Positions 48,432 to 53,170 of a DNA stretch of 64,000 nt are shown here, piece by piece. This stretch comes from Escherichia coli O127:H6 str. E2348/69 (GTDB lineage: Bacteria; Pseudomonadota; Gammaproteobacteria; Enterobacterales; Enterobacteriaceae). The notes beneath the pieces are model-generated. The model ran no database searches. It was not told the origin of the DNA and worked only from the letters and a program-made list of their open reading frames with translations. The stretch lies in NCBI RefSeq assembly GCF_000026545.1, contig NC_011601.1; one strand, given 5' to 3'. The number at the start of each line of letters is the position of its first letter. Within the stretch, counting starts at the first letter, position 1. A program made the translations under genes and the position numbers.

Positions 48432-49053
48432 AACTGCCATCCGGCTGGCGGGTAAACAGGACCTGTTGATTATTCCCCGTATCAATGGTTAAGCCCGTCA
48501 CCACGCCGCTGGCGTTCTGGCGGATTTTCACCATCTGCCCGTTTTGCAAATTACTCAGTGGCTTATCCGCGCCTTCTACCTGCGCCATGGCATAGACATC
48601 GGTAGCGGGCAGTCCGTGGTCGCGGAACAGCTGCGCCATCGTTTTACCGGGTTCGACACGATAGGAGCGCCATTGATTATCAATTCCGCTATCTGGCTGG
48701 AATGGTTGCGTATGGGTGGTTTGCGGCTGCTCTTCTGGCTGGCCTTCCTGTATTGGTTCTGGAGCGACCGGAGCCACCTGATCAGGATCATTTTGTGGCG
48801 TGACTAATTGCGCCCGCAGCTGTTCTTCTGTCGGTGGTTGTGATTGCGACTGAATATCTAACTGCGCTTCACGCGTCACCACCGGCGCGTTGGGCGTATC
48901 ATCAGATGGAAGCAGAAATCCGACCACCAATACAATGGCGGCAATAATGATCCCCCGACGATGCATCGGCGGCAGCGGGTCCATGAAGCGAAAATTGTCC
49001 GGCGCGTGCCAGACTTTCTCCAGGGTTGGTTTTAGTTCAAAGCGCCCGGGCAT
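48415..49053 (-). CDS. ytfB: Cell-division/opacity-associated protein YtfB (OapA, LysM-like)
   Basis: ORF 48415..49089; start at [23 protein letters not shown]; TM segment and Pro/Gln-rich linker; 3' end overlaps TetR gene 3' end by 17 bp. Confidence 0.88.
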
Positions 49054-49270
49054 GGTTTCCTCCTGCTCCGCGTCTTGTTCCTCAATCATAGCCTATGAAT
49101 AAGCTAACGCTATGATGTCCGTGGTAAACCCGCCTTTATTATATTCATACGGGATATTGCTATTGTTTCTTTTTCCCCGGGATTTGTCATCATTCCCGCG
49201 ACAAAGTTTTACCCAAAGAAGTGTGGCTGATATGCTGCCCGCTACTTTATACCCTAAGAAAGGAAATACG

Positions 49271-49891
49271 ATGACCACCCCAACTTTTGACACCATCGAA
49301 GCGCAAGCAAGCTACGGCATTGGTTTGCAGGTAGGGCAACAACTGAGTGAATCTGGCCTGGAAGGGCTGCTGCCAGAAGCACTGGTTGCAGGCATTGCCG
49401 ATGCGCTGGAAGGCAAACATCCGGCTGTTCCGGTTGATGTGGTGCACCGCGCGCTGCGTGAAATCCACGAACGCGCCGATGCCGTTCGTCGTCAGCGTTT
49501 CCAGGCGATGGCTGCTGAAGGTGTGAAATACCTGGAAGAAAACGCCAAAAAAGAAGGTGTAAATAGCACCGAATCTGGCCTGCAATTCCGCGTGATCAAC
49601 CAGGGTGAAGGCGCAATTCCGGCACGTACCGACCGCGTTCGTGTTCATTACACCGGAAAACTGATCGACGGCACCGTGTTTGACAGCTCCGTTGCTCGCG
49701 GCGAGCCAGCTGAATTCCCGGTTAACGGCGTGATCCCTGGCTGGATTGAAGCACTGACTCTGATGCCGGTAGGTTCTAAATGGGAACTGACTATCCCGCA
49801 GGAACTGGCATATGGCGAGCGTGGCGCAGGCGCGTCCATCCCTCCGTTCAGCACCCTGGTGTTTGAAGTCGAACTGCTGGAAATCCTCTAA
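49271..49891 (+). CDS. fklB: FKBP-type peptidyl-prolyl cis-trans isomerase FklB
   Basis: ORF 49112..49891; start at [22 protein letters not shown] (ATG 49271); FKBP domain. Confidence 0.93.
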
Positions 49892-49919
49892 GCAGCGCAT
49901 TCTGTTCCCCTCGAACCAG

Positions 49920-51469
49920 CTGTCTCTTATACACAAATCCCCACCCGGGGATTTGTGATGTCTGTCAGTCTGCTTTAGGGGGACTCTTTCCATCCGGTAG
50001 TTTCCTTCCTCCCCGGCAGCGATTTTTTGAACTTTTTCCTCACCTGTTGATCTTCTCTTATATTTCATTTTCTTCGGGTCTGTTATGGTACTTTCTGATT
50101 GTTATTCATGGGCTAACGAGCAGTTTGGACATGCCCGTCTCGGTGATCCGCGTCGTACACGACGCCTTGTGTCACTGGCCTCTTCTCTCGCTCAGCATGC
50201 AGGTCTTTCTATTGTGAAATCATCCCAGTCCACTGCTCAGGTTGAAGGTGCGTACCGCCTGATACGTAACCCGTCTGTGTCCCCGCAAGCCATTGCCGAA
50301 GCCGGATTTACCGCCACTGTAAGGGCATGTGAGGCTCATCCGCTGCTCCTCGCGCTGGAAGACACCACCACCATTAACTTCAGTCACAGTACGGCATCTG
50401 ATGACCTGGGGAATACCACCACTAACCCGAAGACGCGCGGGCTGCTGGCTCACTCTGTCCTGATGTACGCCCCCGACAGCGCCCTGCCAGTCGGTCTTAT
50501 CGAACAGCAGCGCTGGAGTCGTGCCACGGACACCTACGGTGTTAAGCACCAGCGAAAAGAACGTCCCTATGAAGAAAAAGAAAGTTACCGCTGGCAGCAG
50601 GCTTCGGAGCGCATGGCCGAACGGCTGGGGGAGATACAGAAACGGGTAATCACTGTCTGTGACCGGGAAGCGGATATCTGGCATTACCTGCATTATAAAG
50701 TCAGCCACGGGCAGCGCTTCGTGGTGCGTGCAGCACAGAATCGCCGGCTGGAAGAAGCACCCGGCAAGCTCTTCGAACTGCCGGAAGTCCTGGCAACCGC
50801 GGGAAGCCACACGCTGAATGTGATGCAAAAAGGCGGGCGGGCAGCCCGCCAGGCCCGGATGTTCATCAGTTACAGCGAAGTCAGCATAAAAAATCCCGAC
50901 AACAGCGGCCAGGCGCTCCCGCTCACGTATGTCTGTTGCCGGGAGCAGGCAGAGGACGGCGCCTGCTGGCATCTGCTGACGTCAGAAAAAGTGGCGAGTG
51001 CCGCCGATGCGCGACGTATCGTCAGCCATTACGAGCGACGCTGGCTGATAGAGGAATACCACAAGGCGTGGAAAAGTGGTGGTACATGTGTGGAATCGCT
51101 GTGAATGCAGACCCGGGATAACCTCGAGCGCATGGTGGTTATCAAGGCGTTTATCGCGGTGCGGGTGCTGGGCCTGCGGCAGGGCGGTATCAGTGAAGAA
51201 ACACAAAATGACAGCTGTGAGAAAATACTGACGCCGACAGAGTGGAAACTGCTGTGGGTTAAGCTGGAAGGAAAACCGCTTCCGTCACAGATGCCGACAC
51301 TGAAATGGGCCTGTCTGAAACTGGCGAAACTGGGGCGATGGCATGACAGCAAACGCACCGGTCGCCCCGGTTGGGTAGTCATGTGGGATGGCTGGTTCAG
51401 ACTTCAGGATATGGTTGAGGGTTACCTGGTGATGAAGTCTCTTGATCAGGAGATCTGATCAAGAGACAG
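49920..51469 (+). mobile_element. IS50-like insertion sequence (IS4 family), ~1.55 kb, with terminal inverted repeats and ~9-bp flanking direct repeats
   Basis: Left end CTGTCTCTTATACACAAAT (49920-) and right end AGATCTGATCAAGAGACAG (-51469) match IS50 OE/IE-type ends; flanks CGAACCAG at 49912-49919 and 51470-51477; internal transposase homologous to Tn5 Tnp. Confidence 0.85.
50085..51458 (+). pseudogene. IS50-like DDE transposase interrupted by in-frame TGA (339-aa + 117-aa fragments)
   Basis: ORFs 50085..51104 and 51105..51458 share one frame, separated by TGA at 51102-51104; Tn5-Tnp-like motifs GDPRRT, ALEDTT, CDREADI, RWLIEEYHKAWK in the first part and DNLERMV / DSKRTG in the second. Confidence 0.8.
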
Positions 51470-51757
51470 CGAACCAGAGGGGAGCAGACATTCAGCAATA
51501 AACCCTTCAGTTTGCCAAACGGCGCTATTTTGTGTTGCAAAGACCCCGTAAGCGTGTATTTTTGTGAGCTGTTTCGCGTTATCACCGTGATATGACACTC
51601 ACTTTAAACATAAAATTAACATTAGATCTAAATCTTAGTATTCATACCGCGTATTGTTACCTAATATCGATGAGTCCCGATACAGATTCGTCGTATCATA
51701 GACTGACTAAAGGCCGTAGAGCCTGAACAACACAGACAGGTACAGGAAGAAAAAAAC

Positions 51758-53170
51758 ATGGTAGATCAGGTAAAAGTCGTTGCCGATGATCAGGCTCCGG
51801 CTGAACAGTCGCTACGGCGCAATCTCACAAACCGACATATTCAGCTTATTGCCATTGGCGGTGCCATTGGTACAGGGTTGTTTATGGGGTCCGGCAAAAC
51901 GATTAGCCTTGCCGGGCCGTCGATCATTTTTGTTTATATGATCATTGGTTTTATGCTCTTTTTCGTGATGCGGGCAATGGGGGAATTGCTGCTTTCGAAT
52001 CTGGAATACAAATCTTTTAGTGACTTCGCTTCCGATTTACTCGGGCCGTGGGCAGGATATTTCACCGGCTGGACCTACTGGTTCTGCTGGGTTGTAACCG
52101 GTATGGCAGACGTGGTTGCCATTACCGCCTATGCGCAATTCTGGTTCCCTGGGCTTTCTGACTGGGTTGCTTCGTTATCCGTGATCATTCTGTTACTGGT
52201 TCTAAACCTCGCCACGGTAAAAATGTTCGGTGAGATGGAGTTCTGGTTTGCGATGATCAAAATCGTCGCCATCGTGTCGCTGATTGTTGTCGGCCTGGTC
52301 ATGGTGGCGATGCACTTTCAGTCACCGACCGGTGTGGAAGCATCATTTACACATTTGTGGAATGACGGCGGCTGGTTCCCGAAAGGCTTAAGCGGCTTCT
52401 TTGCCGGATTCCAGATAGCGGTTTTCGCTTTCGTGGGGATTGAGCTGGTAGGTACAACAGCTGCGGAAACCAAAGATCCGGAGAAATCACTGCCACGCGC
52501 GATTAACTCCATTCCGATCCGTATCATTATGTTCTACGTCTTCTCGCTGATTGTGATTATGTCCGTGACGCCGTGGAGTTCGGTAGTCCCGGAGAAAAGC
52601 CCGTTCGTTGAACTGTTTGTGTTGGTAGGTTTGCCTGCGGCTGCCAGCGTGATCAACTTTGTGGTGCTGACCTCTGCGGCGTCTTCCGCTAACAGCGGTG
52701 TCTTCTCTACCAGCCGTATGCTGTTTGGCCTGGCCCAGGAAGGTGTGGCACCGAAAGCGTTCGCTAAACTCTCTAAGCGCGCAGTACCCGCGAAAGGGTT
52801 GACCTTCTCTTGTATCTGTCTGCTCGGCGGCGTGGTGATGTTGTATGTGAATCCCAGCGTGATTGGCGCGTTCACGATGATTACAACCGTTTCCGCGATT
52901 CTGTTTATGTTTGTCTGGACGATTATCCTTTGCTCGTACCTGGTGTATCGCAAACAGCGTCCTCATCTGCATGAGAAGTCGATCTACAAGATGCCACTCG
53001 GCAAGCTGATGTGCTGGGTATGTATGGCGTTCTTTGTGTTTGTTCTGGTGTTGTTGACACTGGAAGATGACACCCGCCAGGCGCTGCTGGTTACCCCGCT
53101 GTGGTTTATCGCGCTGGGGCTGGGCTGGCTGTTTATTGGTAAGAAACGGGCTGCTGAACTGCGGAAATAA
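51758..53170 (+). CDS. cycA: D-serine/D-alanine/glycine transporter CycA (APC family)
   Basis: 470-aa ORF MVDQVKVVADDQAPAEQSLRRNLTNRHIQLIAIGGAIGTGLF. Confidence 0.95.
   Translation: MVDQVKVVADDQAPAEQSLRRNLTNRHIQLIAIGGAIGTGLFMGSGKTISLAGPSIIFVYMIIGFMLFFVMRAMGELLLSNLEYKSFSDFASDLLGPWAGYFTGWTYWFCWVVTGMADVVAITAYAQFWFPGLSDWVASLSVIILLLVLNLATVKMFGEMEFWFAMIKIVAIVSLIVVGLVMVAMHFQSPTGVEASFTHLWNDGGWFPKGLSGFFAGFQIAVFAFVGIELVGTTAAETKDPEKSLPRAINSIPIRIIMFYVFSLIVIMSVTPWSSVVPEKSPFVELFVLVGLPAAASVINFVVLTSAASSANSGVFSTSRMLFGLAQEGVAPKAFAKLSKRAVPAKGLTFSCICLLGGVVMLYVNPSVIGAFTMITTVSAILFMFVWTIILCSYLVYRKQRPHLHEKSIYKMPLGKLMCWVCMAFFVFVLVLLTLEDDTRQALLVTPLWFIALGLGWLFIGKKRAAELRK

Follow-up and report, generated by a model that had tools for sequence, protein, structure and literature searches.

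A copy of ISEc13 between fklB and cycA of Escherichia coli E2348/69 with a nonsense change in its Tn5-type transposase gene

In the window analysed here, a 64-kb stretch of the chromosome of the enteropathogenic E. coli (EPEC) reference strain E2348/69, serotype O127:H6, the region between fklB and cycA is occupied by what appears to be a whole insertion sequence with a stop codon inside its transposase gene. The locus raises the question of which element this is, how it came to lie at this position, and whether the stop codon is a genuine change, an artefact or a functional part of the element. An earlier note, made from the letters of the sequence, had read the locus as a complete IS50-like element with flanking direct repeats and a transposase killed by one in-frame TGA, and we compared this reading with public genomes, domain and structure databases and RNA folding.

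The element and its insertion site

Inspection of the sequence placed the element at 49920-51469 on the plus strand, 1550 bp that begin with CTGTCTCTTATACACAAATC at 49920 and run up to AGATCTGATCAAGAGACAG at 51469, and a complete IS50-like element is indeed present between the two genes. The upstream neighbour is fklB (49271-49891, plus strand), encoding an FKBP-type peptidyl-prolyl isomerase, as taken from the ORF list and from RefSeq, which annotates the identical locus in NZ_LT827011.1. The downstream neighbour is cycA (51758-53170, plus strand; RefSeq annotation), encoding a D-serine/D-alanine/glycine transporter and separated from the IS end by 288 bp, within which a promoter scan marked a promoter-like site at 51587-51616. 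A stretch of 2551 bp, which takes in the element with its two flanks, has 100% identity to NZ_LT827011.1 and NZ_LT903847.1. The left-end 16-mer occurs once in the 64-kb window, and a search of the window with the right-end 13-mer for a second full copy found none.

RefSeq/PGAP names the product of the coding sequence 'IS4-like element ISEc13 family transposase', and the element is 99.9-100% identical over 1550 bp to copies that RefSeq names ISEc13; under the ISfinder naming convention, as we understand it, a name applies at 95% or more DNA identity to the reference element. By RefSeq/PGAP naming, the fklB-cycA element is thus a complete ISEc13, an insertion sequence of the cut-and-paste DDE type. 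The IS4 family is marked by a single-ORF DDE transposase with the signature Y-(2)-R-(3)-E-(6)-K (PMC2266710), and in ISEc13 the catalytic D93, D193 and E323 are conserved together with Y316, R319, E323 and K330. Elements of the IS50 subgroup measure 1350-1550 bp, have ends of the form CW------Y---CA-A--W- and generate direct repeats of 8-9 bp (PMC2266710, Table 1); the element studied here is 1550 bp long, its left end CTGTCTCTTATACACAAATC fits all fixed positions and its duplication is of 8 bp.

Both ends are abutted by CGAACCAG, at 49912-49919 on the left and at 51470-51477 on the right (neither with a strand assigned). The flanking direct repeats of the earlier note are therefore real, whereas their proposed length of 9 bp has to be corrected to 8 bp, because the uninterrupted site of strain 2015C-3101, TTCCCCTCGAACCAGAGGGGAGC, holds one copy of CGAACCAG. 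This strain also provides the empty-site comparison that the earlier note had asked for. Folding of the reconstructed empty site gave a hairpin with a 12-bp stem and a 6-nt loop (dG −23.6 kcal/mol, z −6.1), which begins 10 nt past the fklB stop codon and contains the motif CCCCT-N8-AGGGG. The insertion has split it into a left arm, TCTGTTCCCCTC (49901-49912, plus strand), and a right arm, GAGGGGAGCAGA (51477-51488, plus strand). The hairpin lacks a T tract and is therefore not a canonical intrinsic terminator. ISEc13 has accordingly inserted in the loop of a strong hairpin downstream of fklB, duplicating the 8 bp CGAACCAG.

The insertion is recent, as had been suggested. Among 5426 complete genomes, only the three E2348/69 assemblies and B19374 have the fklB-cycA site occupied, B19374 through an independent event. 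In B19374, ISEc13 lies at the same nucleotide and in the same orientation, but its own allele, CGAGCCAG, is duplicated on both sides, which identifies a separate insertion event. The same two junctions are found in CP148541.1, where an inversion between two copies of the IS now separates them. The reading as an old element, fixed or domesticated, was rejected, since nearly all of the 5426 genomes have an empty site. The element itself is common: at least a fragment of ISEc13 is present in 2991 of the 5426 complete E. coli genomes, and copies covering at least 80% of it occur in 873, where the number of places per genome has a median of one and reaches 32 at most. The E2348/69 chromosome assemblies, with 29, 27 and 30 places, have some of the highest counts seen, so that ISEc13 has expanded in this strain, and plasmid pMAR2 carries two more places. 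The differences in copy number between E2348/69 stocks suggest that ISEc13 is still moving or recombining; literature searches by assembly accession returned nothing on such stock differences.

The in-frame TGA in the transposase gene

The ORF list and domain searches delimited a truncated transposase ORF of 339 codons plus a premature TGA (50085-51104, plus strand), followed in the same frame by a remainder of 117 codons and the natural stop (51105-51458, plus strand; 51105-51455 when the stop is left out). The in-frame TGA at 51102-51104 is thus present as first described, and the translation across the junction reads ...CVESL*MQTRDNLERMV..., with the codon of the native Met341 directly after the stop (TGAATG). 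The remainder corresponds to positions 299-405 of the NCBIfam profile NF033590 and contains the Tn5-type dimerisation domain. The intact sister protein, WP_000244358.1, has 457 amino acids and scores 514 bits against NF033590, 'IS4 family transposase', for which the cut-off is 160. It has the Tn5-type set of Pfam domains, namely Tnp_DNA_bind (PF14706) at residues 8-65, DDE_Tnp_1 (PF01609) at 177-357 and Dimer_Tnp_Tn5 (PF02281) at 377-452. The truncated ORF keeps Tnp_DNA_bind as well as D93, D193 and E323, and the stop at codon 340 of 457 deletes residues 340-457, and with them the end of the DDE domain and all of the dimerisation domain. It is apparent that the stop separates the catalytic core from the dimerisation region, as had been proposed from the sequence, and that this copy does not have the uninterrupted ORF of an autonomous element. 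PGAP already marks the fklB-cycA copy as a pseudogene with an 'internal stop'.

Comparison with intact copies traced the stop to one base. The copies at ygfK and on pMAR2 share 1549 of 1550 bases with the fklB-cycA copy, and the sole difference is T in place of C at 51102, which turns CGA, the codon of Arg340, into TGA; Arg340 is aligned to Arg342 of Tn5. The copy at the same fklB-cycA locus in NZ_CP059840.2, a third E2348/69 assembly, also differs at 51102 alone. These comparisons bear out a single nonsense change. An 81-bp query centred on the T matched exactly in 2 of the 1135 E. coli records that have this stretch, both of them Sanger assemblies of E2348/69, NZ_LT827011.1 (4.85 Mb, 29 ISEc13 places) and NZ_LT903847.1 (4.79 Mb, 27 places). 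In NZ_CP059840.2 the insertion point and the duplication are the same, the base at 51102 is C and the copy is annotated as intact, and C is found in every other copy examined. Whether the TGA is copy-specific, a check that the earlier note had recommended, can be answered in the affirmative: sister copies carry C, and T in 2 of 1135 records with C in NZ_CP059840.2 makes the change specific to the fklB-cycA copy and to one lineage. Not all E2348/69 assemblies share the T allele.

The same distribution gives some weight to a sequencing or assembly artefact, according to which the fklB-cycA copy is really intact: the corresponding codon in NZ_CP059840.2 is CGA and the encoded protein is the intact WP_000244358.1, all other copies examined have C, and an error common to both Sanger assemblies is possible. 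We nevertheless consider an artefact unlikely. The T is present in two E2348/69 assemblies that differ in size and IS copy number, and in a repeat of about 30 copies an error would be expected to pull the base towards the majority C and not away from it, which argues that the T is real. The same bias, with short-read polishing homogenising a multicopy IS, could account for the C in the polished NZ_CP059840.2. The most economical reading, which covers both when the change happened and in which direction, is that C>T at 51102 arose very recently in one stock. The base at 51102, together with the ISEc13 copy number, would serve as a marker separating E2348/69 laboratory lineages.

A genuine mutation could still be a functional one. 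Selenocysteine insertion or programmed recoding at the TGA was rejected, with sister copies reading CGA and the allele confined to one lineage. It is also very improbable that the stop yields a 339-residue inhibitor acting in trans like the Tn5 Inh protein, or that read-through of the UGA or restart at the AUG restores an active protein. The fragment keeps Tnp_DNA_bind and the DDE residues; Met56, the start of Tn5 Inh, aligns with Gln52 of ISEc13, and with no Met at this position another route to an inhibitor is conceivable; and the Met341 codon is suitably placed, directly after the stop, for a restart. Tn5 Inh, however, inhibits via its C-terminal dimerisation domain, which is exactly the part lost here. 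Furthermore, an allele that is confined to one laboratory lineage and that none of the 1133 other records carries bears the mark of a mutation newly arisen, neutral or a loss, and not that of selection, and an Rfam search of 49000-52200 returned no known RNA, whether an RNA family or a recoding element.

In Tn5, the C-terminal domain is required for dimerisation and for synaptic complex formation, and by analogy the predicted 339-residue product would bind the ends without forming a synaptic complex; having lost the dimerisation domain, the R340* product should be inactive. The description of the transposase as killed is appropriate for the encoded protein and does not extend to the element, the ends of which are the same as those of the intact copies and are flanked by the 8-bp duplication, and which shares the cell with identical intact copies. 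Since both ends are intact, the fklB-cycA copy is disabled but not immobile. It would be non-autonomous, and transposase from the intact sister copies could mobilise it in trans, probably inefficiently because Tn5-type transposases act preferentially in cis. Taken together, we hold with considerable confidence that a copy of ISEc13 inserted into the hairpin loop downstream of fklB and that a recent C>T transition at 51102 then produced the stop at Arg340 and a non-autonomous copy; the transition would have followed the insertion, in one E2348/69 lineage and during its laboratory or clonal history. A nonsense-mutated copy of ISEc13 is in itself ordinary and already known, being a catalogued IS that public annotation flags.

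End structures and target choice

The left terminal inverted repeat (49920-49938, plus strand), delimited by comparison with the IS50L of plasmid pO86A1, contains TTATACACA at 49927-49935, which fits the DnaA-box consensus. It matches the synthetic Tn5 mosaic end at 17 of 19 positions, the first 16 nt being identical. A hairpin, CACAAATCCCC-ACCC-GGGGATTTGTG, with an 11-bp stem (49932-49957, plus strand; dG −22.1 kcal/mol, z −5.3), overlaps the inner part of this repeat and probably blocks read-in transcription from fklB. A simple promoter scan did not call this hairpin a terminator, nor did it find a sigma-70-like promoter for the transposase gene. The right terminal inverted repeat (51451-51469, plus strand) holds two GATC (Dam) sites, at 51452 and 51457, and a third lies 7 nt further inward at 51444. 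Folding revealed a second hairpin at this end, GTCTCTTGATCAG-GAGAT-CTGATCAAGAGAC, with a perfect 13-bp stem (51437-51467, plus strand; z −4.7 on the plus and −5.7 on the minus strand), which overlaps both the end of the transposase ORF and the right repeat.

Four additional insertion sites, obtained first, were biased in that BLAST had picked them for flanks resembling the query; the 18 independent ISEc13 sites considered here were collected afterwards without regard to their flanks. The consensus of these sites is CCYCY[N8]RGRGG, with C at −4 in all 18 and at −2 in 17, and with G at +2 and at +4 in 18/18 each. The duplication measures 8 bp at 12 of the 18 sites, 9 bp at five and 7 bp at one. 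The mean match to CCCCT/AGGGG is 7.9 out of 10 at the 18 sites versus 2.5 at random positions of the window, and 16 of them score 7 or more, against a null frequency of 0.0023 (probability about 1e-40). Elsewhere in the window, nothing comes within one mismatch of the motif.

Many of the ISEc13 insertions lie in hairpins at gene 3' ends or in true terminators, for example at lysP and satP-mog, and such hairpins, including the one at fklB, have been struck repeatedly in unrelated strains. The agp-yccJ site and the tRNA-Pro flank were each hit in different strains with duplications of 8 bp in one case and 9 bp in another, and these are repeated independent insertion events. At an ibs-type site ISEc13 is present in both orientations, as expected for a symmetric target. 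In light of these data we propose, tentatively and at a little less than even confidence, that ISEc13 is strongly site-specific for the centre of GC-armed palindromes of the form CCYCY-N8-RGRGG, mostly 3'-end hairpins, and that its own left-end hairpin may replace the host structure it splits. The literature that we could search lists ISEc13 by name only and, ISfinder aside, yielded no statement of such a target specificity for ISEc13 or for the IS50 subgroup.

Relatives of the left end were sought by exact scans. A 25-mer gave no match in contigs representing one genome per species, and a 17-mer gave at least 120 loci in public genomes, mostly Nextera adapter remnants, with real relatives in marine Gammaproteobacteria and in Pluralibacter. 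Relatives with the same 17-nt left terminus come from Photobacterium, Psychrosphaera, Aeromonas and related marine Gammaproteobacteria, and their left hairpin is a textbook intrinsic terminator, made up of a stem and 6-9 T, after which most of them have TTGAAC; between elements the inner stem varies in sequence while the pairing is kept. In their left flanks a GC-rich stem arm typically comes after a run of A, and where both flanks are available the insertion site is a palindrome. The right end of several relatives did not turn up in a simple search for GAGACAG. It is a reasonable inference that hairpins or terminators are the insertion targets of this clade and that its own terminator keeps outside transcription off the transposase gene. 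A recent preprint reports, for IS families, an enrichment of terminator-like sequences within IS ends and immediately upstream of them (10.1101/2025.07.22.666184), so the idea of terminators at IS ends is not new in general.

Target specificity is the only part of this locus that may be of interest to specialists. Tn5-type transposases are the enzymes of tagmentation and mutagenesis, and an element that combines near-identical ends with a strict palindromic target offers a comparison for the study of target choice among them. As a consequence of the palindromic target, the same intergenic hairpins are reoccupied across E. coli lineages, which can mislead IS-based typing. In addition, the first 16 nt of the element equal the Nextera mosaic end, so that adapter trimming may clip genuine reads at an ISEc13 boundary.

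Comparison with IS50/Tn5 and other IS4 elements

The reference for IS50 was the complete IS50L of plasmid pO86A1, 1534 bp long; the IS50 of pCE33-1 is incomplete at its outside end. Compared over 19 positions, ISEc13 agrees with the IS50 outside end at 17 in its left end and with the inside end at all 19 in its right end, so that the IS50-type ends recognised in the earlier note stand. The intact sister protein aligns over its full length with the Tn5 transposase structures (PDB 1MUH, 1MUS and 4DM0; best E=6e-84), in which D97, D188 and E326 correspond to D93, D193 and E323 of ISEc13 and Y319, R322, E326 and K333 to its YREK residues. This agrees with the earlier description of a Tn5-like transposase in which the DDE contexts are intact. 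In contrast, ISEc13 and the pO86A1 IS50L are about 45% identical in DNA over their whole length and 39-41% identical in protein, and near-identity is restricted to the terminal 19 bp. With ends that match and interiors that do not, the element is IS50-like but not IS50. There is next to no chance that it is IS50/Tn5 itself, a laboratory mini-Tn5 insertion or Nextera adapter contamination, for although its first 16 nt coincide with the Tn5 mosaic end of Nextera adapters and the matches listed in the 17-mer scan of public genomes are mostly adapter remnants at contig ends, both the identity values and the lengths (1550 versus 1534 bp) refute it, as does the natural distribution: 873 natural E. 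coli genomes, from a wide range of hosts, contain a copy that spans 80% or more of the element.

ISEc13 and IS50/Tn5 have in common their architecture, the fold family of the transposase and the DDE and YREK residues, and the ends of both contain DnaA-box-like TTATACACA and GATC sites. They differ in the duplication, which is 9 bp for IS50 and mostly 8 bp for ISEc13, in length, and in the strong hairpins just inside both ends, which are a feature of ISEc13. A further difference concerns the target: the Tn5 target consensus is weak (cited in PMC1525189), whereas ISEc13 has the strict motif CCYCY-N8-RGRGG.

In this respect ISEc13 resembles members of other IS4 subgroups. Arm-specific targets are known in other IS4 subgroups, for example GGG-N5-CCC for IS231A (PMC2266710), and ISRm22 targets REP sequences (PMC1525189). 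In IS231A, ISRm22 and some members of the IS4 subgroup, as in ISEc13, a symmetric motif flanks the duplicated bases and the targets are extragenic palindromes. Those elements, of the IS231, IS4Sa and IS4 subgroups, use other motifs and, unlike ISEc13, generate duplications of 10-13 bp.

A precedent for the state of the fklB-cycA copy is found in IS50 itself. IS50L is the classic example of a copy disabled by one stop, in this case a premature stop at codon 451, as seen in pO86A1, which costs 26 residues, whereas the stop at residue 340 of the ISEc13 copy costs about 118. A stop just 26 codons from the end is enough to render IS50L inactive, and the transposase that moves IS50L comes from its intact sister, IS50R.

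Termini of ISEc13 and their matches in public assemblies

ISEc13, the 1550-bp IS4-family element of the IS50 subgroup between fklB and cycA (window 49920-51469), carries a strong hairpin just inside each of its ends, at 49932-49957 on the left and 51437-51467 on the right. In marine relatives of the element (L064, L068, L072, L076, L097, L111, L124, L126, L133 and L137) the left hairpin forms a canonical intrinsic terminator, made up of a stem and 6-9 T, with TTGAAC after the T run in most of them; the sequences of the inner stem vary and the pairing is kept. The marine relatives lie within palindromes that resemble terminators and are flanked by an A run.

At window 49920-49935, ISEc13 begins with 16 nt identical to the mosaic end of Tn5 that Nextera adapters carry. 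When public genome assemblies were scanned for CTGTCTCTTATACACAA, the matches listed, at least 120 loci (L027-L146), were mostly adapter remnants at contig ends, continuing with CTGACGCTGCCGACGA or CTCCGAGCCCACGAGAC and coming from Streptomyces, Frankia, Nonomuraea, MAGs and others among those listed, and their presence there shows that deposited assemblies hold untrimmed adapters. Genuine reads at the left ends of ISEc13 may be clipped by adapter trimmers. At some of the listed loci the same left terminus is followed 48-198 bp further on by a GAGACAG end, and these short-spaced loci resemble non-autonomous, MITE-like derivatives of miniature size; the candidates are L134, L144 and L145, with 157-198 bp between the ends, L102, with 48 bp, and L085-L088 from Pluralibacter gergoviae, where the copies are located in CCCTCTCCC...GGG repeats.

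Rearranged copies and plasmid fragments

The fklB-side and cycA-side junctions of CP148541.1 (L153 and L154) are found on separate ISEc13 copies about 60 kb apart and have reciprocal flanks, CTCCCCAA/AGGGGCGAGGGG, which indicates an inversion through recombination between the two copies. Two full-length copies, one on pMAR2 (L003) and one in NCTC10444 (L024), lack matching flanking repeats, suggesting not a simple insertion but a later recombination event or a deletion next to the copy. In hundreds of plasmids from E. coli, Shigella and Salmonella, most of them predicted to be conjugative, there are only short ISEc13-related fragments of 92-97% identity (e.g. plasmid matches H102-H119) that cover ISEc13 positions 1231-1550 or 1427-1550; these are putative old remnants of a related element.

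Target motif and repeated use of the same hairpins

RefSeq product names for the fklB protein, WP_000211225.1, are inconsistent, since one record (NZ_CP059840.2; window-equivalent 49271-49891) gives 'BamJ family beta-barrel-assembly machinery protein' and the others give 'FKBP-type peptidyl-prolyl cis-trans isomerase'.

The same hairpins have been independently occupied by ISEc13 in unrelated strains (L005; L153/L154; L015 vs L149; L011 vs L017). At the fklB hairpin of B19374 (L005) the duplicated bases are the strain-specific allele CGAGCCAG. At the agp-yccJ and tRNA-Pro-flank sites the duplication is 8 bp in one strain and 9 bp in another, 8 bp being the usual length. Hairpins at gene 3' ends make up the majority of insertion sites, and the sites share a symmetric motif, CCYCY-N8-RGRGG (window 49901-49919 and 51470-51488; L002, L005, L007-L023, L147-L156). 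Among the 18 independent sites chosen without regard to their flanks, C at -4, G at +2 and G at +4 are each present in all 18 (P about 1e-40 for the motif). The known target preference of Tn5/IS50 is, in contrast, far looser than this motif.
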